A stretch of DNA of 9,906 nt from a virus (Duplodnaviria > Heunggongvirae > Uroviricota > Caudoviricetes): IMG/VR virus record IMGVR_UViG_2563366903_000019; one strand, written 5' to 3'. Positions 1 to 9,906 of the stretch are shown here, one piece after another; the stretch's first letter is position 1; each line of letters begins with the position of its first letter. The translations under genes and the position numbers were made by a program. The notes below the pieces were generated by a model. That model saw only the letters and a list, made by a program, of their open reading frames with translations, was not told the DNA's origin and did no database searches.

Positions 1-1239
1 ATGAGCAGCGCAATTCATAGACTTAGCGACACTCTTTTACGAAAATTAAGCGGATCACCAACCACAAAAAACGCCTTTTTTAATGACGGTGGCAATCTTA
101 GCGTAAGACATTCCACCAGCGGCCTGTTAACCTGGTATTTCACTTACAGGGCCGGAACTGGTAGGCAGGTATCACCGGAACGTCTGAGACTGGGCAATTA
201 TCCCGATCTGAGCCTGAAAGCAGCCCGGGAAAAAGCAGCACAGTGTCGCGCCTGGCTGGCTGAGGGGAAAAATCCGCGCTATGAGCTTAATCGTGCTGTA
301 CAGGATGCGTTAGCCCCCGTGACAGTTAAGGACGCGCTCACTTACTGGCTTGAATCGTATGCAAAGGAAAAGCGCACTGACTACGAATCACTGAAAAGCC
401 GGATCAATAAACACATAATCAGCCAGATTGGCGCTTTGCCGTTGGAAAAATGCGAGCTACGGCACTGGTTGGCATGTTTTGACCAGATGGCAAAGCGAAG
501 CCCAGTATCTGCCGGATTTTTGCTACAGGTATGCAAACAGGCGCTTAAGTACTGCCGAAAACGACGATACGCAATCAGCAACGTTCTTGATGATATGGTT
601 GTCGGTGATGTGGGAAAAAAAGCAGAAGTGAGCGAGCGCGTACTAACAAACAAGGAGCTTGGGGAATTACTCCGCGCCCTGGATGACAAAATATTCCCTC
701 CATACTACAGCGCCCTAATTCGCCTCCTGATTGTTTTTGGATGCCGTACCACTGAGCTAAGGCGCTCTGAGGTGCAGGAGTGGGATTTTAAAGAAATGCT
801 CTGGACAGTACCGAAGGAGCACAGCAAAACGAAGGTCGCCATATTCAGGCCAATACCGGAAAGCATTTTGCCGTTCGTCACGCAACTGGTGGAGCAGAAC
901 AGACACACGGGCTTATTGCTTGGTGAACTGAAAGGACAATCTTCGGTAGCAGAGTACGGAAGAACAGCGCACAGACGAATTAATCAAGCCCCTTGGACGT
1001 TACACGATATCCGGCACACATTTACAACCATGCTGAACGATTTAGGCGTGGATCCGCATATTGTCGAGCAGCTTACAGCCCACCAGATGCCAGGGATGCA
1101 GCGAGTCTATAACCACTCCCGTTATCTTGATGCAAAACGTGATGCTCTTAATCTATGGGTAGACCGTCTCGAGCTTCTCCAGAACAATGATGAAAAAATC
1201 GTTGTTATGACCCCGCGAATTTACACCCAAAATTCTTGA
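1..1239 (+). CDS. int: Tyrosine-type site-specific integrase, P4-like family
   Basis: 412-aa ORF. N-terminal arm-binding-like region (LSD...DGG..L...Y pattern), conserved Arg in GCRTTELRR, HxxR box (LHDIRHT) and C-terminal VYNHSRYLD with the presumed catalytic Tyr. ORF begins at window position 1, so the true start could lie upstream. Confidence 0.85.
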   Translation: MSSAIHRLSDTLLRKLSGSPTTKNAFFNDGGNLSVRHSTSGLLTWYFTYRAGTGRQVSPERLRLGNYPDLSLKAAREKAAQCRAWLAEGKNPRYELNRAVQDALAPVTVKDALTYWLESYAKEKRTDYESLKSRINKHIISQIGALPLEKCELRHWLACFDQMAKRSPVSAGFLLQVCKQALKYCRKRRYAISNVLDDMVVGDVGKKAEVSERVLTNKELGELLRALDDKIFPPYYSALIRLLIVFGCRTTELRRSEVQEWDFKEMLWTVPKEHSKTKVAIFRPIPESILPFVTQLVEQNRHTGLLLGELKGQSSVAEYGRTAHRRINQAPWTLHDIRHTFTTMLNDLGVDPHIVEQLTAHQMPGMQRVYNHSRYLDAKRDALNLWVDRLELLQNNDEKIVVMTPRIYTQNS

Positions 1240-1658
1240 CAAATTACGGCTGTTTTTTCTTTAAGAGATTATAGCCGTGAATAGATCTTAGAATATCGGG
1301 GAATATCTGCAAATATCTTCTCTTTATATGTGTCAACTATCGAAAAAAATTGAAATGTCTTCTTCTGAGTTCTTATTCTCTGTTACTTGATTGTTCCAAC
1401 ACCTGATGGTTTATCTATTTGTTTTTAATGAGGTAATTCAGGTGCTATGCCAAATGACGACATTTTTTGTTGCGTCGCTTAAAAACTCGTGACACGATTT
1501 TAAACACTAACGAGCTTCTACGAACCTTAGCGAACAAAGCCTTTAGCATGGTTGTGTTTTTAATTTAAGAGGTGAAAAAGAATCTAAGTAATATCCGATC
1601 TCATATATCTACAGCTAAGAGAAAAGTTTATATACGTAATTTTTATGTAGGTTTTTGT
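1240..1658 (+). promoter_or_regulatory. AT-rich int-alpA intergenic control region (presumed alpA promoter/leader)
   Basis: About 420 bp with no credible ORF and visibly lower GC than flanking genes; three AATATC direct repeats in the 1290s-1320s; strong SD-like AAGAGGTGA around 1566-1574 with no well-spaced ATG. Confidence 0.3.
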
Positions 1659-1868
1659 ATGCGTGAAATAAATGAAGATCGCGTAATCCGTGAGGATGAA
1701 TGTCGTAAGTTAACTGGAGTGTGCCGCACTACACGTTACGAACTGGAGAAAAAAGGGCGCTTTCCGTCACGTCTTAATCTGGGCGGTCGTTCTGTAGGGT
1801 GGCTGCTGTCCGAGGTTATGGAATGGGTTAAAAGCCGGGATCGCATTAATTCAGGTAAGGCAGTGTAA
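1659..1868 (+). CDS. alpA: AlpA-family phage transcriptional regulator (small HTH protein)
   Basis: 69-aa product MREINEDRVIREDECRKLTGVCRTTRYELEKKGRFPSRLNLGGRSVGWLLSEVMEWV matches the size and pattern of AlpA-type regulators. ATG at 1659 is in frame within the longer 1572 (GTG) ORF; start choice is uncertain. Confidence 0.7.
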   Translation: MREINEDRVIREDECRKLTGVCRTTRYELEKKGRFPSRLNLGGRSVGWLLSEVMEWVKSRDRINSGKAV

Positions 1869-1884
1869 AGGGGAGCATATGACA

Positions 1885-1915
1885 CATAAAACAAAGGCGA
1901 CCTGGGGCGGTCGCC
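1885..1915 (-). terminator. Putative rho-independent terminator for minus-strand transcript
   Basis: 7-bp GC-rich stem GGCGACC / GGTCGCC (1896-1902 / 1909-1915) with 6-nt loop; on the minus strand it is followed by TTTGTTTTAT. Lies about 90 nt downstream of the minus-strand gene stop. Confidence 0.4.
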
Positions 1916-2006
1916 AATGGGAAAACACTAAACATAAGCCCGAACATCATAGCGATTTGCTGGCTGGTGGGCAATGTGCTCAGTGTGCTGGCTTGCTGGT
2001 GGACTA

Positions 2007-2189
2007 TCAGCCTTTTGGTTCTATGCCTTCTTTGCGTAGCTTGTCACGACAGGCATTTTTAACCCATGAACTGAAATTACCAGGCCCAGCAACTTCGTTA
2101 ATTTGTTGCAACAATGTGTCTTCGAAGCGGATGTTTTTCTTTGTGCTGCCAGAGCGATCAAATTTTGGTTTCTCATTTTTTTCTTGCAT
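2007..2189 (-). CDS. Small ribbon-helix-helix-like DNA-binding protein (possibly YlcI/YnfO DUF3950-like)
   Basis: 60-aa ORF with a basic N-terminus, a beta-strand-like KKNIRFED, then two helices (TLLQQINEVAG, NFSSWVKNACRDKLRKE), which is typical RHH architecture. Codon usage looks coding. Own terminator downstream and palindromes upstream. It lies antisense inside the long + ORF 1879-2538, so it is ambiguous. Confidence 0.45.
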   Translation of the reverse strand: MQEKNEKPKFDRSGSTKKNIRFEDTLLQQINEVAGPGNFSSWVKNACRDKLRKEGIEPKG

Positions 2190-2234
2190 TGGTACGTACC
2201 ACCGTTATAAACTGAAACCCAATGGTACGTACCA
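2190..2234. promoter_or_regulatory. Twin palindromic operator-like sites TGGTACGTACCA
   Basis: Identical 12-bp perfect palindromes at 2190-2201 and 2223-2234 (centres 33 bp apart), immediately upstream of the minus-strand RHH gene start and about 100 bp upstream of the + strand ATG at 2335. Confidence 0.4.
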
Positions 2235-2334
2235 TATTGAAGATACGCAACCATTAAATACAGCGAAGCCCCGCAGTGGTGGAACACTCGCAGGGCTTCT
2301 AACCACCAACGATAGAAAGCGTATCGAGGTAGCT

Positions 2335-2538
2335 ATGAGAAATCATACCACACACCCGCAAGGGCGGGACTCGCACAACCTGAATAAATACATCTGGCGT
2401 TTTATCGCCCTGAGCACGGCACAACCGCGCGTGATTACCATTGAGGCCACCAGCGAACAGGAAGCACGCCTGCAATCCCCGGCTGGCTGCGTGATGGTAT
2501 TCGCCGCCCGTATTCGTCAGGGGGTGTTCCATGCCTGA
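2335..2538 (+). CDS. Small hypothetical protein (possibly host cell division inhibitor Icd-like)
   Basis: ATG at 2335 preceded by GAGGT (2326-2330). 67-aa product MRNHTTHPQGRDSHNLNKYIWRFIALS... with E. coli-like codon usage. Stop overlaps the start of the next gene (ATGCCTGA). It is the 3' part of the 219-aa ORF 1879-2538, sharing its stop. Confidence 0.45.
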   Translation: MRNHTTHPQGRDSHNLNKYIWRFIALSTAQPRVITIEATSEQEARLQSPAGCVMVFAARIRQGVFHA

Positions 2539-2851
2539 TATGTCAAATTACCAGTACCTGATTAATCCGCATTTTAACTGTGAGCATGATATTGCTAAAA
2601 AAGTTTATTCCGCTGCGGATGGGGCTACTGACAATATATCAATGGCTGTTGCCTCAATTGGTAACCTGATGTGGTATGCGTCAGAAAATGAGGAATATGA
2701 CGAAAAGGCCATGCGCATTGATATGGGTAATATCGGTTTGTTACTGGCAATGCTTGGGCAGTTTGATATTTCGTTACGGTGCACCATTGAAAATGCCAAA
2801 GATGCATTAAATGCTATAAAGAAAGCGAATACTGATTTAAATCGGGGATAA
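2531..2851 (+). CDS. Hypothetical protein (106 aa), low-GC accessory gene
   Basis: ORF with GGGGG 9 nt upstream; start overlaps upstream stop; GC visibly lower than neighbouring genes; no motif I can recognise. Confidence 0.6.
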   Translation: MPDMSNYQYLINPHFNCEHDIAKKVYSAADGATDNISMAVASIGNLMWYASENEEYDEKAMRIDMGNIGLLLAMLGQFDISLRCTIENAKDALNAIKKANTDLNRG

Positions 2852-2857
2852 ATAATC

Positions 2858-3157
2858 ATGAGAACATATTTATCTGGCTTGACTGCCAGCGGTTATGCAC
2901 ACCCCCAAATTATCCCCGGCGCTATTTATCTGGATAAGAACGGTAACAGAGTAACGGTAAAAGAACTGATGTTTGACCGAGTGTATTTTATCCGTGATGG
3001 CTATTCATTTCTTAGTTCGCTGAACGTGGAGATCTTTATTAGCAGATTCAGGCGGGAAATCCCGCTTTCCAGAAATAACCATGTGTCATGTATGGATGTT
3101 GATAAAAAACTACAGGAACTAAAAAACATGATTGCCGCGTGGAGAGAGCAGAAATGA
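2858..3157 (+). CDS. Hypothetical protein (99 aa), low-GC accessory gene
   Basis: Starts 6 nt after the upstream stop; its stop overlaps the primase ATG (ATGA at 3154-3157); low GC; no recognisable motif. Confidence 0.6.
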   Translation: MRTYLSGLTASGYAHPQIIPGAIYLDKNGNRVTVKELMFDRVYFIRDGYSFLSSLNVEIFISRFRREIPLSRNNHVSCMDVDKKLQELKNMIAAWREQK

Positions 3158-5277
3158 AAAAAGCGCCAAATTTAAAACACCAGCCACGTGACAAAATGAC
3201 GGAAGTCATCATTTTTGCGGGTAGTGATGCGTGGGCACATGCGAAGCAGTGGCAGGAACAGGACGGGCGACTGGCTGGCGACAGCGTGCCTCCTGTCTGG
3301 CTTGGAGAGCAACAACTTGCCGAACTGGATAAGCTGCAAATTGTGCCGGAAGGCCGAAAATCAGTACGCATATTCAGGGCCGGACATCTTGAGCCAGTAA
3401 TGATCAAGGCGATTGGTCAGAAGCTGGCGGCGGCAGGCGTACAGGATGCAAATTTTTACCCTGATGGAATGCACGGTCAGGAGGTGGAGAACTGGCGCGA
3501 ATATCTAGCCCGTGAGCGGCAGAATCTTTCTGATGGTCTGGTTATTGAGTTTCCGGTAAAGAAAAAAGATACCGGAAGCCATAGCGATGACGAATTAAAG
3601 CCACGCGTTGAAAGTCGCGCCGATGGTGTTTTCTGGGTAACGCCCAAAGTGGATAAGCAGTCAGGCGAAATTATCCGGCCTGAGACGTGGTTATGTTCTC
3701 CGCTTGAACTACTGGGAACGGGGACGATCGGTAAAGAGCATTACCGCGTGATGCGCTGGAAAAAAACCGCAAACCATGAAGTCATCACAATGGCGATCCC
3801 GTGTGGTGGTATCGGCGACCGTGACGGCTGGCGGTTACTTAAAGATCACGGGCTGAACGTGACAACCAACGGCAAATACAGGGCAATCCTGGCGGACTGG
3901 ATGCAGTTAAGCGGAAGCCATGAGGAATGGCAGTTAAGCACAACAACGGGCTGGCATTTTGGCGCGTACATCATGCCGGACGGTTCGATCATTGGTGAAT
4001 CTGAAAAACCGATCCTGTTTACCGGAAAAAGCGCCGCGATTAACGGTTATTCCGTGGCGGGCACGGCGGATGGCTGGCGCGACAGCGTGGCGCGTCTGGC
4101 TGGCGGTAATGCCTCAATGATGCTGGGTGTGGCAACGTCACTGGCAGCGCCTTTAATTGGCCTTGTGGGTGCTGACGGCTTCGGGGTGCATCTTTTCGAA
4201 CAGTCATCGGCAGGTAAGACCACCACGCAGAACATCGCATCAAGTTTATGGGGAGAGCCGGACGCGCAGCGGCTGACCTGGTACGGCACGGCGTTAGGTA
4301 TTGCCAATGAGGCCGAGGCCCATAATGACGGGCTTTTACCACTGGATGAGATAGGCCAGGCCGGAAATGCGCGGGAAGTGTCAACGTCTGCTTATACGCT
4401 GTTTAACGGTTCAGGGAAATTGCAGGGGGCGAAGGATGGCGGCAACAGGGAGATCAAACACTGGCGAACGGTGGCAATCAGCACCGGAGAAATGGACGTT
4501 GAGACATTCCTCAAAAGTGAGGGGATAAAAGTTAAGGCGGGGCAGCTTGTCCGACTGCTTAACGTTCCGATGGAAAAAGCCACGAAATTTCACGAATACA
4601 GCAACGGTAAGGAACATGCTGACGCGTTAAAGGATGCCTGGACAGCAAATCACGGGGCGGCGGGTCGTGAGTGGGTTAAATGGCTGGCAGGCCACCAGCA
4701 GGAGGCAAAGGATACGGTAAGGGAATGCCGCGAACGGTGGCGCAACCTGATACCGGAGAGCTACGGCGAGCAGGTCCACCGCGTGGGTGAACGTTTCGCC
4801 ATACTGGAGGCCGCGCTTGTGCTTTCCGGTCATGTAACTGGCTGGGTCGTGCAGGAATGCCGCGACGCGATACAGCATAACTTTAATGCCTGGGTGAAGG
4901 AGTTCGGCACGGGTAACAGGGAATTTAAACAGATGGTTGAACAGGCTGAGGCGTTTTTGTCGTCGTTTGGGTTTAGCCGCTACCTTCCGTACCCCAATAC
5001 AGATGAGCGTGATTTACCGATTAAAGAGCTTGCCGGATACAGAAAAGGGAGCATTCGCAACGAAGATGACGAGATGCGCTATTACACGTTCCCGCACGTG
5101 TTTGAGAGTGAGATAGCGAAGGGATTTAATCCGGCGCATTTTGCGCGTGCCCTGGATGCTGCCGGAATGCTGGAGAAGGGAAGCGATCGCCGATACAAAA
5201 AAAAGGCGCTGGGCAAGATTGGGGGTAAGCAGCATGTTTTTTACGTGCTGATGTTCCAGCCTGATGATGAAGATTAA
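3154..5277 (+). CDS. Primase/helicase-like replication initiator (P-loop NTPase; DUF927/P4-alpha-like Pri-Rep class)
   Basis: About 707-aa ORF from ATG 3154 (SD GGAGAGAG at 3141-3148); ORF track gives a GTG at 3139. Walker A-like EQSSAGKTT; position immediately upstream of the iteron array matches satellite replication proteins. Confidence 0.8.
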   Translation: MKKAPNLKHQPRDKMTEVIIFAGSDAWAHAKQWQEQDGRLAGDSVPPVWLGEQQLAELDKLQIVPEGRKSVRIFRAGHLEPVMIKAIGQKLAAAGVQDANFYPDGMHGQEVENWREYLARERQNLSDGLVIEFPVKKKDTGSHSDDELKPRVESRADGVFWVTPKVDKQSGEIIRPETWLCSPLELLGTGTIGKEHYRVMRWKKTANHEVITMAIPCGGIGDRDGWRLLKDHGLNVTTNGKYRAILADWMQLSGSHEEWQLSTTTGWHFGAYIMPDGSIIGESEKPILFTGKSAAINGYSVAGTADGWRDSVARLAGGNASMMLGVATSLAAPLIGLVGADGFGVHLFEQSSAGKTTTQNIASSLWGEPDAQRLTWYGTALGIANEAEAHNDGLLPLDEIGQAGNAREVSTSAYTLFNGSGKLQGAKDGGNREIKHWRTVAISTGEMDVETFLKSEGIKVKAGQLVRLLNVPMEKATKFHEYSNGKEHADALKDAWTANHGAAGREWVKWLAGHQQEAKDTVRECRERWRNLIPESYGEQVHRVGERFAILEAALVLSGHVTGWVVQECRDAIQHNFNAWVKEFGTGNREFKQMVEQAEAFLSSFGFSRYLPYPNTDERDLPIKELAGYRKGSIRNEDDEMRYYTFPHVFESEIAKGFNPAHFARALDAAGMLEKGSDRRYKKKALGKIGGKQHVFYVLMFQPDDED

Positions 5278-5299
5278 TCCCCTGTGTGAGGAAAAAAAT

Positions 5300-5615
5300 T
5301 GCGGGTTATGCGGGTTATCCTGTGTATAAGTGTATTAAGTGCATGAATATAAAGGAAACCAATAACCCGCACGTAACCCGCAAAAGGGCATTTATAACCC
5401 GCAAAAGCACGATTATAACCCGCAGGCGAATAACTGAAGTAACACCGGACAGTCATGCGTAACCCGCAGAAAAAACCCCGTTTGCGGGTTATTTTGAGCG
5501 TTTTGCGGGTTACGTGGTGAGCAAATAATAAACAGGGCGTTTTGCAAAATACTGATATAAAAGGATAAAAAATGGTTAGCACGCTAAGATAACCCAATAA
5601 CCCGCATAACCCGCA
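5300..5615. repeat. Iteron array / putative origin of replication
   Basis: About 11 copies of RTAACCCGCA in both orientations (5300-5309, 5310-5318, 5362-5371, 5373-5382, 5394-5403, 5415-5424, 5459-5468, 5483-5492, 5504-5513, 5597-5606, 5607-5615) plus an AT-rich stretch at 5520-5590, directly downstream of the replication gene. Confidence 0.75.
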
Positions 5616-5647
5616 CATGTTTCTATATATATAAATTGAGGTGGCAA

Positions 5648-5899
5648 ATGACCAGAACACGCAGAGACAGAACAGAGCCAAAATATAAAGCGTTAGACAT
5701 GACTGAGCACACCTTAAAGGTGGCAATCAGAACGATAGACCGCCACACGCGGGAAGGATACGCGAAGGAACATCCCGACCTGATAAGCGCATTCATGACC
5801 ACGGCGGCGGCAAACTTTGCCACGCTGACAGAACGGGAGATTGCCGAAGCGGAACAGGTAACAACCATCAACGTTAAAACCGGAGAGGTGGAATCATGA
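5648..5899 (+). CDS. Hypothetical protein (83 aa)
   Basis: ATG at 5648 with GAGGTGG just upstream; stop overlaps the ssb start (ATGA at 5896-5899), indicating translational coupling. Confidence 0.55.
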   Translation: MTRTRRDRTEPKYKALDMTEHTLKVAIRTIDRHTREGYAKEHPDLISAFMTTAAANFATLTEREIAEAEQVTTINVKTGEVES

Positions 5900-6306
5900 C
5901 AGCACAGATAGCGGCTTACGGTCGGCTGGTGGACGACCCGCAGGTAAAACAGACCAGCAAGGGCACACCGATGACGCTGGCGCGTATGGCGGTATCACTG
6001 CCATGCAGTCAGGCACAGGACGGACAGGCGACGTTATGGCTATCGGTCATCGCATTTGGTAAGCAGGCCGACTTCCTGGCTAAACATCAAAAAGGCGACG
6101 TTGCCAGCGTATCCGGCACGATGCAGGTCAGCCAGTGGACCGGACAGAACGGGGAGACGCGTCAGGGTTATCAGGTTATTGCAGACAGCGTAATCAGTGC
6201 CCGTGCGGCACGTCCTGGCGGGAACAGACGCAAAACCACAGGCGCACAGGGTAATCAGCCACCAGCGGGAGGCGATGACCCTTACGGTGATGATATTCCG
6301 TTCTGA
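5896..6306 (+). CDS. ssb: Single-stranded DNA-binding protein (SSB family, short linker)
   Basis: 136-aa product with OB-fold-like core (IAAYGRLVDDPQV..., LWLSVIAFGKQADFLAKHQKGDVASVSGTMQVSQWTGQNGETRQGY) and the hallmark acidic C-terminal tip DPYGDDIPF. SD GAGAGGTGG upstream. Confidence 0.85.
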   Translation: MTAQIAAYGRLVDDPQVKQTSKGTPMTLARMAVSLPCSQAQDGQATLWLSVIAFGKQADFLAKHQKGDVASVSGTMQVSQWTGQNGETRQGYQVIADSVISARAARPGGNRRKTTGAQGNQPPAGGDDPYGDDIPF

Positions 6307-6316
6307 GGGGGTGACG

Positions 6317-6589
6317 ATGGTACATGACCGCATAGCGGAAGAACTCGAAGCGAAAGGATTTTACCGGAGGGCGGCGGCGCGATGGGGTGAAGTCATGCAG
6401 CTGGTGGAGACAGACAAGGAACGGCATCAGGTTACGATGCGACGGCTGGAATGTTCCAGGAAGGCACAGAGGCCACCGGAGCCGCCGGATAACTTCGGAG
6501 ACCTGAGAAAGGCAGTCGATCGCACTTATGCTGAAATGGGTATAGATGGTGTAAGCGATGAAATATGGCGTAATTACCCAGGCAGCTAA
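6317..6589 (+). CDS. PerC-family transcriptional regulator-like protein
   Basis: 90-aa product MVHDRIAEELEAKGFYRRAAARWGEVM... matching the PerC/Pch-like N-terminal motif as I recall it. SD GGGGG 5 nt upstream of ATG 6317; the ORF track's 6197 extension overlaps ssb. Confidence 0.65.
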   Translation: MVHDRIAEELEAKGFYRRAAARWGEVMQLVETDKERHQVTMRRLECSRKAQRPPEPPDNFGDLRKAVDRTYAEMGIDGVSDEIWRNYPGS

Positions 6590-6594
6590 TCAAC

Positions 6595-6618
6595 AGCCGG
6601 AGTAATCCGGCTTTTTTG
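6595..6618 (+). terminator. Rho-independent terminator
   Basis: Stem AGCCGG / CCGGCT with loop AGTAAT, followed by TTTTTT. Confidence 0.6.
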
Positions 6619-6667: not shown

Positions 6668-6710
6668 CATATGAGGTTTTTTTTGGCGCACTGACACACA
6701 TGATCGGGAT

Positions 6711-6760
6711 CATCATTTCATAATTTGCAACACAACTCAACATCATTGCATAAAATGCAA
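6711..6760. repeat. Two 20-bp direct repeats upstream of and overlapping the capsid-operon promoter
   Basis: CATCATTTCATAATTTGCAA (6711-6730) and CATCATTGCATAAAATGCAA (6741-6760), 17/20 identical, 30-bp register. Confidence 0.5.
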
Positions 6761-6773
6761 TCATGATTATAAT
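6746..6773 (+). promoter_or_regulatory. Sigma70-like promoter of the capsid operon
   Basis: -35 TTGCAT (6746-6751), 16-bp spacer, perfect -10 TATAAT (6768-6773); predicted start near 6780, about 50 nt before ATG 6830. Confidence 0.5.
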
Positions 6774-6778
6774 CAGAT

Positions 6779-6794
6779 CTGGATGAACATCCAG
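6779..6794. promoter_or_regulatory. Operator-like palindrome at predicted transcription start
   Basis: CTGGATGAACATCCAG, a 16-bp near-perfect palindrome (half-sites match 7/8) immediately downstream of the -10 element. Confidence 0.4.
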
Positions 6795-6829
6795 TTATGA
6801 TTTTTTAAGTCAAAGAGGAATTTCTTACT

Positions 6830-7036
6830 ATGGCTGAAGAGAAAAAAGGCGGTGTTTCGGTGTACATAAGCCCCGACATCGTGAAGGCGCTCAAGGAACG
6901 CCACCAGCAGAACGTAAAAGCAGGCATTGCGGCAGGACTTGATCCGCTGGCGATGGTTGAGCCGTCAACAGGCTGGCAGGTACGCGCCTATTTACGCGCG
7001 GCGCTGGGTATGAATCAGGTTCACGGGGGTGAATAA
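6830..7036 (+). CDS. Hypothetical protein (68 aa), first gene of capsid operon
   Basis: ORF with AGAGG about 11 nt upstream; its stop overlaps the capsid gene start (TAATG); no recognisable motif and no cysteines. Confidence 0.55.
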   Translation: MAEEKKGGVSVYISPDIVKALKERHQQNVKAGIAAGLDPLAMVEPSTGWQVRAYLRAALGMNQVHGGE

Positions 7037-8091
7037 TGACAGTAAAAGCAATAGCACTTAACACTAACCAGCTTTTTGCGTACCTGAATCGCGAGGATAT
7101 TGCGGAATTTAAATTCAGTCCGCTGTTTACCGCGCTGTTTTTCCCGAACGTGGCGACATTCAACACACAGGACATCATGTTAGATAACCTGGATATTGAA
7201 GAAGTCACTATGTCGGCGTTTTGTTCGCCTATGGTGGGTAGCCAGGTTCAGCGCGATAAAGGGTACGAAACAAGCATTATTCGCCCTGGCTACATGAAGC
7301 CAAAACACGAAATCGATCCATTAAAAACAATAATGCGCATGGCTGGAGAAGATCCAGCACAGCTTAACGACCCTACCTACCGCCGTATGCGCCTGATTAC
7401 TGGCAACATGCGCCGCCAGATAAACGCCATTAAAGCGCGCGTGGAATGGCTGGCGGTGAATGCGATAACGACCGGAAAAAACATCATTGAGGGCGAAGGC
7501 ATAGAACGCTATGAAATCGACTGGAAGATCCCAAGTAAAAATATCGCCAGACAGGGACATGGCAAAAAGTGGTCAGAGGCAGATAAGGAAACACACGATC
7601 CAATCTATGACATCGAGCTTTATGCTGATCAGGCTGGTTGCCCCGCAAACGTCATGATTATGGGCGCTGAGGTATGGCGAACGTTACGCAGCTTTAAAAA
7701 ATTCCGTGAGCTGTACGATCTTTCCCGTGGTTCAGAGTCCGCCGCAGAGCTGGCCTGTAAAAACCTGGGCGAAGTGGTGAGCTTTAAAGGCTATCTGGGC
7801 GATATTGCCCTTATCGTCTATTCCGGCAAATACGCCGACAGCGACGGCACAGAAAAATATTTCCTTGAGCCTGATTTGCTTGTCCTGGGCAACACCAACA
7901 ATAAAGGGCTGGTGGCCTATGGTGCGATTATGGATCAGGACGCAGTAAGAACGGGGGCAACGCAAAACATGTACTACCCGAAAAACTGGATTGAGGACGG
8001 AGATCCGGCGATTGAGTACGTGCAGACGCACAGCGCACCGCAGCCGGTTCCGGCAGATATTCGCAAATTTGTTACTGTCAAAATTGCTTAA
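7036..8091 (+). CDS. Major capsid protein, lambda gpE family (HK97 fold)
   Basis: 351-aa product aligns by eye with lambda gpE as recalled: FKFSPLFTALFF vs FKFDPLFLRLFF, PGYMKPKHEIDP vs PGYVKPKHEVNP, EDPAQLNDPTYRRMRLITGNMR vs EDPQNLADPAYRRRRIIMQNMR, YPKNWIEDGDPAIEYVQTHSAP vs YPKNWVTTGDPAREFTMIQSAP. Confidence 0.9.
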   Translation: MTVKAIALNTNQLFAYLNREDIAEFKFSPLFTALFFPNVATFNTQDIMLDNLDIEEVTMSAFCSPMVGSQVQRDKGYETSIIRPGYMKPKHEIDPLKTIMRMAGEDPAQLNDPTYRRMRLITGNMRRQINAIKARVEWLAVNAITTGKNIIEGEGIERYEIDWKIPSKNIARQGHGKKWSEADKETHDPIYDIELYADQAGCPANVMIMGAEVWRTLRSFKKFRELYDLSRGSESAAELACKNLGEVVSFKGYLGDIALIVYSGKYADSDGTEKYFLEPDLLVLGNTNNKGLVAYGAIMDQDAVRTGATQNMYYPKNWIEDGDPAIEYVQTHSAPQPVPADIRKFVTVKIA

Positions 8092-8102
8092 CGGGGGATT
8101 CT

Positions 8103-8438
8103 ATGGACACTCCATACATTGAGTTATTTGCAGGCAGTCAGCAGGTCGCCACGACGCTGGTACATTTTGCCGCTGATGCTGGCGTTATCCAGGAATTTAC
8201 CCCGCTGATGCTGGCGGACAATGGCGAGTTTAAGCCGTGGGATGGTCAGGAATCTGGCAAGGCTGTTTATCTGACTTCGTACCCCGTGGACACGTCAAAG
8301 CAGAAATCAGCACAGTGTTACAAGACGGGGATATTTAATATCGCCGCCGTAAACTGGCCTGAGAGCGCCGACACTGACGCGAAAAAATGCGCCGCCTTTG
8401 CGGGTTCTGGCGTATCCGTTCAGCCGCTGGCGCGATAA
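8103..8438 (+). CDS. Head decoration protein, lambda gpD-like
   Basis: 111-aa product with TPLMLADNGEFKPWDG and CYKTGIFNIAAVNWPESADTDAKKCAAFAGSGVSV, matching lambda gpD (TPLMLDTSSRKLVAWDG ... [36 protein letters not shown]). SD ACGGGGGA upstream. Confidence 0.85.
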   Translation: MDTPYIELFAGSQQVATTLVHFAADAGVIQEFTPLMLADNGEFKPWDGQESGKAVYLTSYPVDTSKQKSAQCYKTGIFNIAAVNWPESADTDAKKCAAFAGSGVSVQPLAR

Positions 8439-8450
8439 GCAGGGGAAACG

Positions 8451-8864
8451 ATGGCAACGAATGAAAGCATCATGGCGCTACCGCTGGCGAGTAAATTTAA
8501 AGCAGAAGCGCGGGCAATGGCTGACAGAGGTTTATCAACCTACGAGGCCGTATATCAACTCAACAAACTGGAAGAACAGGACAAGCCGCGCGCTGATGCG
8601 ATTATGGCGCTTCATGAACATAACGACTATCAGCCGCTGTTACGTGCAATGGCAAACGTGCCATGTATTAGCGTCGATAATGCTCGTGAAATCCTGAACA
8701 TGACCATAGAGCAGGAGCGCCCAAAGGTTGCACCAGAGCTTACCGCAGCCTTTGAAAACTTTATGGACATGCACAGCCCGCAAGCCGTATCAGCTGGCAT
8801 GGCGTACGATGGCAGAAACCAGGGCGATGACGGCGACATCGATCGCATGCTGAAAACCATCTGA
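8451..8864 (+). CDS. Hypothetical protein (137 aa), last gene of capsid operon
   Basis: ORF with AGGGGA 4 nt upstream, followed directly by a terminator; acidic C-terminus; occupies the position lambda gives to FI but shows no similarity to it that I can see. Confidence 0.6.
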   Translation: MATNESIMALPLASKFKAEARAMADRGLSTYEAVYQLNKLEEQDKPRADAIMALHEHNDYQPLLRAMANVPCISVDNAREILNMTIEQERPKVAPELTAAFENFMDMHSPQAVSAGMAYDGRNQGDDGDIDRMLKTI

Positions 8865-8868
8865 GACA

Positions 8869-8894
8869 AGGCCGGAGAAATCCGGCTTTTTTTT
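8869..8894 (+). terminator. Rho-independent terminator
   Basis: Stem GCCGGA / TCCGGC with loop GAAA, followed by T8; nearly identical in sequence to the terminator at 6595-6618. Confidence 0.65.
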
Positions 8895-8960
8895 ACGGGT
8901 CCTTTCCGGCATATGGACCCGTTACGGGGCGGCGACCTCGCGGTTTTTCGCTATTTATGA
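8895..8960. other. cos site: lambda-like cosQ-cosN core (cosN GGGCGGCGACCT at 8927-8938)
   Basis: ACGGGTCCTTTCCGG ... GTTACG GGGCGGCGACCT CGCGGTTTTTCGCTATTTATGA; the last 33 nt match the left end of lambda (GGGCGGCGACCTCGCGGGTTTTCGCTATTTATGA) at 32/33 from memory, and the upstream part resembles the lambda right end. Confidence 0.75.
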
Positions 8961-9031
8961 GCCTTTTCAGGGGGGGGTGGTGGTTTTGTTGTTTGCTCTA
9001 TCTTTATGAATGAAAAGGGAAAGATGCAAAC

Positions 9032-9069
9032 AATACACCAACCTGAAGCAGTAATTAAGTTGGTGTATT
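9032..9069. promoter_or_regulatory. 11-bp perfect inverted repeat in cosB-equivalent region (candidate TerS binding site or 5' hairpin)
   Basis: AATACACCAAC (9032-9042) and GTTGGTGTATT (9059-9069) separated by 16 nt, abutting the ATG at 9071. Confidence 0.4.
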
Positions 9070-9070
9070 A

Positions 9071-9613
9071 ATGAAATCGCACCTGATGAACAAAAAAAAC
9101 ATGGCGAAAAGCTGCCGTGTAAGTGCGACAGCGTTCGACAAGTGGGGAGTGACTCCCGTTGAACGTAAAGGCCGTGAGGCGTTTTACGATGTTGCCAGCG
9201 TGATAGACAATAGGGTTAACAATGCAATTAGCCAGCTTACAAACGACAAAGGCGATATTGATGATGATGAACTCTTACGAGTCAGGATCAGATTACTGAC
9301 AGCACAGGCGGAGGCGCAGGAACTTAAAAACGAGCGCGATCGCGGTGACGTGATCGATACTGAGTTTTGCCTGTACGCGCTTTCAAAGCTGGCGAGTCAG
9401 ATTTCATCAATCATGGACAGCCTCCCGCTTACTATGCAAAGGAGCTTCCCACAGATTACCCCCGCCATGCTGGATAGGCTTAAAAGGGAAGTGGTTAAAG
9501 CCTGTAATGCCAGTGCCAGAGTTGCCGACAACCTCCCACAGATACTGGCTGATTACTTGAAAGAAACAACCGGAAACGTACCGGAAAAGTTGCAGCCGAA
9601 TAAAGATAAGTAA
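9071..9613 (+). CDS. Terminase small subunit, lambda Nu1-like
   Basis: C-terminal two-thirds align with lambda Nu1 as recalled: LLTAQAEAQELKNERDRGDVIDTEFCLYALSKLASQISSIMDSLPLTMQRSFP vs LTRAQADAQELKNARDSAEVVETAFCTFVLSRIAGEIASILDGLPLSVQRRFP. The N-terminal HTH region is divergent. Alternative start at ATG 9086 (MNKKN..., matching Nu1 MEVNKK...). Confidence 0.85.
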   Translation: MKSHLMNKKNMAKSCRVSATAFDKWGVTPVERKGREAFYDVASVIDNRVNNAISQLTNDKGDIDDDELLRVRIRLLTAQAEAQELKNERDRGDVIDTEFCLYALSKLASQISSIMDSLPLTMQRSFPQITPAMLDRLKREVVKACNASARVADNLPQILADYLKETTGNVPEKLQPNKDK

Positions 9614-9624
9614 CGTAGTACGCT

Positions 9625-9906
9625 ATGACTGAATCCGAAATACTGCGATTAATCCGCCGCGTCTCTGGAATCAGCCAGCAGGCTGACGAACAGACCACGC
9701 AGCCGGACAGCGTGACAGCCGAAAACTATGCGCGTGTTGTTGCTGAGGTGATGCGCCGTGATGGTATAGAACTTAATGGCGTGGATATGCGCAACATACG
9801 AACCAGAGTTCTTGAGTTGCTGGCCTACCGTCGCCGCGTGGAGATGTATCGGGAGAAGGAGAAAATAACGTACCACTGGAAGAAGCCGGAGCGGTTGCGG
9901 CGGTAA
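9625..9906 (+). CDS. Hypothetical protein (93 aa) downstream of terS
   Basis: Complete ORF ending at the window edge, 11 nt after the terS stop; weak SD; Arg-rich C-terminus; not similar to the lambda gpA N-terminus as I recall it. Confidence 0.5.
   Translation: MTESEILRLIRRVSGISQQADEQTTQPDSVTAENYARVVAEVMRRDGIELNGVDMRNIRTRVLELLAYRRRVEMYREKEKITYHWKKPERLRR

Follow-up and report, generated by a model that had tools for sequence, protein, structure and literature searches.

The subject of this report is a 9,906-nucleotide stretch of viral DNA (IMG/VR record IMGVR_UViG_2563366903_000019, Caudoviricetes; this whole stretch is called the window below) and, within it, an operon of four genes at positions 6830-8864 that includes relatives of the lambda capsid protein gpE and of the lambda decoration protein gpD. 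The window belongs to the classical phage-inducible chromosomal islands (PICIs) of Gram-negative bacteria, as an island of the EcCICFT073 type, and the operon is, judging from its sequence, almost certainly the c1498-c1501 operon of this family of islands, the amino-acid identities to the CFT073 proteins being 98.5% (orf68), 94.0% (E, the capsid protein), 98.2% (D, the decoration protein) and 92.0% (orf137). The four open reading frames (ORFs) lie exactly where the initial annotation had placed them (Table 1), and its central proposal, that a satellite carries gpE-like and gpD-like genes of its own, is borne out both by the family matches and by the PICI context. The existence of the operon is already known: it was published in 2018 by Fillol-Salom et al. 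(PMC6092414), whose supplementary tables list c1498 (68 aa), c1499 (capsid, 351 aa), c1500 (head decoration) and c1501 (137 aa). What we add here is the Nu3-type assignment of c1501/orf137, a private capsid clade with a fixed E-then-D order and a longer N-terminal arm, estimates of selection, and a conserved palindromic region that is a putative promoter.

Shell genes in lambda-like families

The capsid protein matches Pfam PF03864 (Phage_cap_E) over its full length (9.6e-50, 169.9 bits for a cut-off of 22.9) and phrog_29 (9e-107), and is 43% identical to lambda gpE over 328 residues. Among solved structures it matches 3BQW (6.5e-227), which is the crystal structure of the c1499 capsid protein of EcCICFT073 itself, and lambda 7VI9 (9e-82); the best identity found among 396 matching phage records is 46%. 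Its N-terminal arm is 8 residues longer than that of gpE (4 residues are added at the N-terminus and 4 more are inserted near residues 19-23), in keeping with the N-terminal insertion pointed out in the initial annotation. The decoration protein matches Pfam PF02924 (HDPD; 2.6e-17, 63.5 bits for a cut-off of 29.1) and phrog_49 (7e-27), is 37% identical to lambda gpD over 76 aa, and has its best solved relative in the SHP protein of phage 21 (1TD0, 5.6e-13). In a sub-lineage at about 55% identity, E and D lie in one reading frame, separated by a stop codon and 9 nt (locus L010, 10001-11392), and one database protein (P0071, 463 aa) joins E and D in one chain whose length is exactly what readthrough of this stop would give; this may be a genuine fusion or an error of sequencing.

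It is for the fourth gene that our reading departs from the first one, in which the operon was said to be without scaffold. The 137-aa product (orf137) is a short homolog of Nu3-type scaffolds, corresponding to the C-terminal Nu3 part of lambdoid protease/scaffold proteins, and with this homology the claim of no scaffold is wrong. Among the PHROG families it matches phrog_53, that of the head maturation proteases, at its extreme C-terminal end (positions 494-567 of 583, 7e-10). By BLASTP it shares 38% identity with residues 416-497 of the S49 protease/scaffold protein (501 aa) of the CFT073 helper prophage (E = 2e-10); its sole phage match by tblastn lies directly upstream of D-E in phage 204576. 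Plain BLASTP against lambda gpC gives nothing significant, so that intermediate sequences and profiles were needed to reach lambda. In a phmmer/HMMER scan of 1.8 billion representatives, orf137 matches a stand-alone Nu3-like protein of 195 aa (P0041, 6e-5), which itself matches lambda Nu3 (2e-16). The alignment by hhalign of residues 43-117 of the satellite-family profile with residues 118-187 of Nu3 has a probability of 84% (E = 8e-6), and among 12 lambda head and tail proteins the orf137-family profile matches C and Nu3 only. Two Nu3 repeats of the form IMxL...P..(T/S)V..A..IL can be recognised, at about aa 6-38 and 49-83 (P0041 has four), followed by a conserved C-terminal tail, FENFMDMHSP (motif FExFM..HSP); the last repeat and this C-terminal motif are held in common with the helper prophage scaffold. 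The AlphaFold2 (AF2) model is all-helical, and an uninformative fold search with it against BFVD returned nothing significant; the assignment rests on the sequence and profile evidence. In some genomes the gene bears the NCBI/RefSeq name "phage head-tail connector protein", for which we find no support in NCBIfam, Pfam or PHROG, its homology being to Nu3-type scaffolds. Proteins of the Nu3 type act as internal scaffolds in prohead assembly and are removed on maturation, and orf137 may do the same.

The first gene, orf68, encodes a small satellite-specific protein. It matches phrog_3255 (8e-37) and has no match in Pfam or NCBIfam, nor does its profile match any of the same 12 lambda proteins; its AF2 model (a beta-hairpin and two helices, pLDDT 75) has no Foldseek match in the PDB below E = 1. 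Its stop codon overlaps the start of the capsid gene (TAATG), by which the two genes are translationally coupled. We considered that it might be a homolog of lambda gpW, which also has 68 aa, and rejected this (no match to Pfam gpW; hhalign against lambda W, 0.2%); the idea of a ribbon-helix-helix regulator is unsupported by the model.

Table 1. Features of the window (9,906 nt), with positions counted from its first letter
Feature	Position	Strand	Basis
orf68 (68 aa; ortholog of c1498)	6830-7036	+	ORF and ortholog match
gpE-family major capsid protein, E (351 aa; ortholog of c1499, PDB 3BQW)	7036-8091	+	Pfam, PHROG, PDB
gpD/SHP-family decoration protein, D (111 aa; ortholog of c1500)	8103-8438	+	Pfam, PHROG, PDB
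Nu3-type scaffold homolog, orf137 (137 aa; ortholog of c1501)	8451-8864	+	PHROG, BLASTP, profiles
Terminator-like hairpin and T run after perC (upstream boundary of the operon)	6595-6612	+	hairpin scan
Putative regulated promoter	6716-6773	+	conservation
Leader hairpin CTGGATGAACATCCAG, then T-rich run, then ribosome-binding site AAAGAGG	6779-6794	+	sequence, hairpin scan
Terminator-like hairpin closing the operon (9 pairs, then TTTTTT)	8868-8889	+	hairpin scan
Lambda-type cos site	8890-8970	+	sequence comparison with lambda
Nu1-type small terminase, TerS (full length, 180 aa)	9071-9613	+	Pfam, PHROG, BLASTP
orf93, conserved satellite ORF (last gene of the element)	9625-9906	+	phrog_1561, 5e-56
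PICI backbone	1-6589	+	profile matches and annotation of the near-identical N10 element (L001)
Integrase (tyrosine), left end	1-1239	+	family match
AlpA, PF05930	1572-1868	+	Pfam
DUF3950/YlcI-like gene	2007-2189	-	family match
DUF4222	2858-3157	+	family match
DUF927 primase	3139-5277	+	family match
Single-strand DNA-binding protein (SSB)	5896-6306	+	family match
PerC	about 6317-6589	+	Pfam

The element around the operon

From left to right the window holds an integrase, AlpA, DUF4222, a DUF927 primase, SSB, PerC, the operon, a lambda-type cos site, a Nu1-type TerS and the 93-aa ORF. Integrase, AlpA and primase are co-oriented from the left end, as is expected of a PICI, and the helper-type cos (cosN GGGCGGCGACCT) is accompanied by a candidate packaging-redirection gene, the Nu1-type TerS. 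Escherichia coli N10 has, integrated between cspD/yljB and clpS, a copy that carries the same genes throughout and is 96.5% identical over the right-hand 3.2 kb (window 6700-9906). Attachment-site (att)-like repeats stand 11,044 bp apart there, within the range of about 10-15 kb for classical Gram-negative PICIs. This near-identical 11.0-kb element consists of the genes of the window and about 1.1 kb of repeat-rich non-coding DNA ahead of clpS. Helper-dependent induction, replication and high-frequency transfer have been demonstrated experimentally for the ortholog EcCICFT073 only (PMC6092414).

Neither the window nor the whole N10 element contains a portal, protease, large terminase (TerL), connector or tail gene, and the copies in CFT073 and Nissle give the same picture, with no further head genes. 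This agrees with the absence of portal and protease reported in the initial annotation, and it decides against two readings that were left standing there. As capsid, decoration and small-terminase genes are present in the window, one could imagine an ordinary defective lambdoid prophage, or a capsid-forming PICI (cf-PICI) with its portal, protease, TerL and connectors situated just beyond the end of the sequence. The N10 context (att-like repeats with no extra genes between them, likewise in CFT073 and Nissle) refutes both, and we give them practically no weight. The element ends about 1.1 kb further on and has no more genes there; the set that defines a cf-PICI (own large terminase, portal, prohead protease and connectors) is found neither in the window nor in the complete element; and in place of the lambda series (A, W, B, C/Nu3, D, E, FI, FII, then tails), which would betray a prophage, we find E, D and a Nu3-like gene, flanked by PICI genes and the chromosomal clpS.

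The operon is well delimited. In agreement with the terminator claimed for it, a terminator-like hairpin stands directly after the last gene, and a second hairpin follows perC upstream; the two are near-identical copies of one 27-nt sequence (L001 11895-11921 and 14168-14194, 89% identical), so that the operon stands between direct repeats, in the manner of a cassette. The promoter is a different matter. A sigma-70 consensus scan upstream of the operon finds no site on the + strand, so the claim of an operon-specific promoter survives in a weaker form, as a putative and probably activator-dependent promoter at 6716-6773, proposed because the region is conserved: the 120 nt upstream of the operon are strikingly similar in the E. 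coli, Salmonella and Edwardsiella satellites. This region contains a half-site (TTTCATAATTTGCAA, 6716-6730) lying 30 nt upstream of a related perfect palindrome (TTGCATAAAATGCAA, 6746-6760), which overlaps a weak -35, followed by a perfect -10 (TATAAT, 6768-6773); a motif search gave 5 matches vs 0.7 expected by chance. The leader hairpin that follows is kept in the E. coli and Salmonella copies and is not conserved in contig L006 or in the Edwardsiella copy.

Beyond the operon, a cosQ-like sequence precedes cosN, with its 12-nt cohesive end GGGCGGCGACCT at 8927-8938. From 8927 the first 42 nt or so follow the left end of lambda almost exactly, diverging after position 34, and the cosB region beyond is unrelated; the published description of the EcCICFT073 cos agrees with the site found here (PMC6092414). 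The slot after cos holds a full-length TerS (Pfam Phage_Nu1 2.3e-23; phrog_57 3e-53; 35% identity to lambda Nu1 over 179 aa), whereas CFT073/EcCICFT073 has a 144-aa ORF, rppA, in this place. We considered TerS and orf93 as possible Rpp proteins (about 144-153 aa, homologous to RppA/RppC and encoded after cos) and rejected both: phmmer matches neither to any solved chain, the deposited RppC included, and the slot is occupied by a 180-aa Nu1 homolog. The TerS of the window includes the C-terminal region that in lambda binds TerL, and RppA is shorter. Rpp and TerS appear to be interchangeable modules in otherwise near-identical islands. The gene orf93 is also present in N10, Nissle and CFT073. 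In N10 it is followed by the 1.1-kb non-coding tail before attR, in which blocks of about 50-60 nt are each repeated 2-3 times (L001 15259-15694; for example CTAACCCGTTGAT...GGCGCGGTAACT.GCTGA); these could be protein-binding iterons.

Two details of the backbone deserve mention. A 219-aa ORF on the + strand (1879-2538) has no family match and overlaps the DUF3950/YlcI-like gene of the - strand, and RefSeq annotates a short Icd-like gene instead in this region of the N10 copy; it is probably not a gene. The mechanically called PerC ORF (6197-6589) opens at a GTG inside the SSB gene; the Pfam PerC domain begins only at residue 41 of it, and translation therefore probably starts at the ATG near 6317. 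Scans with Rfam, PADLOC and NCBIfam gave no matches.

A satellite capsid lineage of its own

Relatives of the capsid protein at 47-93% identity occur in Escherichia, Salmonella, Edwardsiella, Lelliottia, Serratia, Cedecea and Scandinavium, and we inspected the genomic context of seven of them: two loci in E. coli, two in Salmonella, one each in Edwardsiella and Serratia, and an unassigned read-assembly contig (L006). The six long loci are all int-alpA-primase satellites with E followed by D and without portal or protease of their own; L006, a contig of 3.7 kb, contains the operon only, in the same gene order. The taxonomic breadth given here was taken from protein searches and contig look-ups. 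A peptide-pattern scan of genome contigs with the capsid protein matched 31 stretches, of which tblastn confirmed 0; as close homologs are present in many enterobacterial genomes, this looks like a limit of the tool or of the sampling of species representatives and not like biology.

In lambda the order is B, C/Nu3, D, E, and C/Nu3, D, E is also the order in the CFT073 icd prophage, the Edwardsiella prophage, Gifsy-1, vB_EcoM-569R10 and phage 204576, whereas the satellite order is E, D, Nu3-like. Since lambda and these five other phages or prophages all have D then E, the swap first seen by comparison with lambda alone is a real difference, and E precedes D in all nine satellite copies besides the window (N10, Nissle and CFT073 included), whatever the replication or packaging module of the island. 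A neighbour-joining tree groups the satellite capsid proteins in a single clade, with the capsid proteins of lambdoid phages as its sister group; the longer N-terminal arm is common to the satellite clade. The genes retained are the shell subset of the lambda head module (capsid, decoration, scaffold), and those missing are precisely the parts that a lambdoid helper supplies. The gene orf68 is found upstream of E in L006, L007, L008 and L012 and is absent from L009-L011.

Two of these loci lie inside prophages. In Edwardsiella tarda an E-then-D satellite lies inside the portal gene of a lambdoid prophage (L008 765-12681, with the portal fragments at 765-1625 and 11908-12681), an arrangement that corresponds to the helper-embedded PICIs described in PMC10111431. 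In Salmonella a satellite with gpE-type capsid and D-like genes is situated in the tail/baseplate region of a P2-like prophage (L011 1-21032). P2-like capsid proteins belong to a different family, and if this prophage were the helper, the satellite gene could not serve for co-assembly with the capsid protein of the helper.

Of 5426 complete E. coli genomes, 592 contain the operon at full length and 90-99% identity, with its ORFs intact and constant in length. All four genes are under purifying selection, with ratios of nonsynonymous to synonymous substitution (dN/dS) of 0.10-0.17 for E, 0.06-0.15 for D, 0.20-0.25 for orf137 and about 0.26-0.31 for orf68 (0.06-0.31 overall). These data bear on the simplest explanation of all, that late genes captured from a helper survive here as a remnant without function, to which one might be led by the lack of phenotype in published assays and by the use of the operon as an "adaptable module" for cargo (PMC10530653). 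Low dN/dS (0.06-0.3), intact ORFs in 592 genomes and a deep satellite capsid clade, which diverges to about 47% identity with its gene order kept across four genera, all speak against decay, and we regard this explanation as very improbable.

What the operon may do

The explanation that we put first, and hold tentatively, is that the operon provides an auxiliary satellite shell assembling on the portal and protease of the helper. After induction by a lambdoid helper, the operon would be transcribed from its conserved, probably activator-dependent promoter; the satellite capsid protein, with its own short scaffold as chaperone, would then polymerise on helper portal and protease into lambda-class proheads of normal size, made either of satellite capsid protein only or of a mixture with helper gpE. 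Trimers of the cognate D-like protein would lock the expanded shell, and the helper TerL, directed by the satellite TerS (by Rpp in EcCICFT073), would fill these heads with PICI concatemers from cos to cos. The module would then be a conditionally useful supply of satellite-compatible heads and not a device for size redirection.

One argument for this explanation comes from the decoration gene. In lambda, gpD binds only to expanded gpE lattices. As proteins of the gpD type bind expanded lattices only, and as a cognate D is kept in every satellite, it can be argued that the satellite capsid protein reaches the state of an expanded, DNA-filled shell. Silent knockouts are compatible with an auxiliary shell, because a competent helper supplies gpE and gpD anyway.

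Several observations nevertheless weigh against it. Deletion of c1499 or of c1500 leaves both transfer with the resident helper and interference with lambda unchanged, and c1499::cat islands are transferred with lambda and phi80 (PMC6092414); a synthetic island in which cas9 replaces the operon (c1498-c1501::cas9) still yields transducing particles (PMC10530653); and among singly cloned genes only c1503 (rppA) inhibits lambda (PMC6739421). The gene orf68 and the Nu3-like gene are confined to sub-lineages (a deeper branch has an AlpA-domain gene after D), so that the minimal conserved unit is E plus D only. The use of helper portal and protease by the satellite capsid protein is something that we infer, as is the promoter, and in the literature searched we found no report on the protein composition of transducing particles. 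The explanation also leaves the selective condition that maintains the module unexplained.

A related and bolder proposal, which we consider possible but somewhat doubtful, is that the particles are chimeras, in which a satellite shell (capsid, decoration and transient scaffold) is combined with stolen helper portal, protease, TerL and tail, and that this private shell confers a conditional advantage. If true, such chimeras would stand, as a stable intermediate, between the classical PICIs, which take everything from the helper, and the cf-PICIs, which take the tails only; the advantage could be a wider helper range, the use of defective prophages, particle stability or escape from capsid-sensing immunity. 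A stronger version would have small heads formed with some natural helper.

Another reading, put forward as a possibility in the initial annotation, is redirection of capsid size by replacement of the capsid protein. In this reading, with some natural helper, the capsid protein with the longer arm and the two-repeat scaffold would build small heads for one or two 11-kb genomes. It can be said in its favour that PmCI172, also with a capsid homolog, makes small capsids (PMC6092414; PMC6893505), that the arm exceeds that of gpE by 8 residues, and that the scaffold has two repeats vs four in P0041. The experiments on the EcCICFT073 ortholog contradict it, however: with the operon intact, the DNA packaged by lambda is all phage-sized, no PICI-monomer band is seen with the resident helper, and transfer is better when the island size is kept constant (PMC6092414), which fits full-size cos packaging; the deletions, moreover, are silent. 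One could object that phage-sized DNA resulted from an operon broken by the marker (c1501::tetA), and we rejected this objection, as the recombineering primers place the cassette directly behind the stop codon of c1501, which leaves the operon of the published packaging test intact. We think that size redirection is quite improbable, even with another helper.

Alternatively, the module might serve not assembly but attack. The satellite homologs of capsid, decoration and scaffold proteins would co-assemble with particular lambdoid phages other than lambda and phi80, or titrate their portal or scaffold, and so poison their head assembly, acting as decoys against phages or helpers. SaPI1 CpmB, which competes with the 80alpha scaffold, offers a likeness for this idea. 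The PICI region after the replication origin (ori) usually holds interference genes (PMC6739421), the SaPIbov5 capsid homolog Ccm interferes with its helper (PMC6092414; PMC8569155), the C-terminal motif of the helper scaffold is preserved in the scaffold homolog, and if only a narrow set of phages were targeted, both purifying selection and the lack of phenotype with lambda would be accounted for. But the deletion of c1499 or c1500 does not abolish interference with lambda, the cloned genes do not inhibit this phage, there are no PADLOC matches, and no sensitive phage is known; a pure poison, besides, would have no use for a co-evolving decoration protein whose binding is restricted to expanded shells. 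We judge this interference role unlikely, albeit less so than size redirection.

It has also been proposed that satellite capsid genes are a backup, by which the satellite can use helpers with interrupted or defective shell genes (prophages split by PICIs, cryptic lambdoid prophages). Of 29 reference PICIs of Gram-negative bacteria, 21 have a capsid gene, which is their commonest late gene and is not required for transfer, and helper-embedded PICIs lie most often inside gene E, from which the backup role was put forward (PMC10111431); the Edwardsiella satellite described above is indeed embedded in a lambdoid prophage. This satellite, however, interrupts the portal gene and not E, so that E-D would not complement the break; the element of the window is at a chromosomal site; and the redundancy is not essential (PMC10111431). 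The backup role is a special case of the auxiliary shell, and taken by itself we find it rather improbable, somewhat more so than interference.

Whatever the answer, there is a mismatch to be explained, in that a capsid/decoration pair, the commonest genes of phage origin in these islands, is under strong purifying selection in at least four enterobacterial genera and gives silent knockouts in published assays. The Nu3-type scaffold homolog makes the module a complete shell kit and sharpens the question. PICIs spread virulence and other accessory genes, and about one complete E. coli genome in ten has an island of this family. The finding would gain in interest only if the particles prove to have chimeric capsids.

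Five known systems are close enough for comparison. EcCICFT073 is the nearest: its four genes agree with those of the window in length (68, 351, 111 and 137 aa) and in order, and PerC, terminator, cos and the 93-aa ORF are common to both. After cos it has rppA (144 aa), where the element of the window has a full-length Nu1-type terS (180 aa). The primase of the window element is of the DUF927 type, and the closest relative of this element, in N10, is integrated between cspD/yljB and clpS. The cf-PICIs, such as EcCIEDL933, have the same backbone (int, alpA, primase) and also satellite-encoded capsid genes, but they possess a full head and packaging set (portal, protease, TerL, HNH, connectors), build capsids of PICI size and take only the tails from the helper (Alqurainy et al., bioRxiv 10.1101/2022.09.08.507074), whereas the present element has shell proteins and TerS only.

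The staphylococcal islands give two partial likenesses. SaPIbov5 is a cos-type satellite that encodes, in Ccm, a homolog of the helper major capsid protein; Ccm gives small isometric capsids and interference, and the EcCICFT073 ortholog gives neither, with lambda or with the resident helper. We know of no decoration or scaffold homologs accompanying Ccm. SaPI1 CpmB resembles orf137 as a small helical satellite protein with the C-terminal motif of the helper scaffold; CpmB shrinks capsids made of helper protein. Here the cognate capsid protein is encoded alongside, and no size change has been reported (PMC6092414). The lambda head module itself, finally, is recognisable in the homologs of E, D and the Nu3 C-terminus and in the lambda-like cosQ/cosN and Nu1. 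The satellite departs from it by the order E, D, Nu3-like, by a shorter and free-standing scaffold, by the 8 residues added to the capsid arm and by the extra 68-aa gene, and it does so without portal, protease domain, TerL, W, FI and FII.

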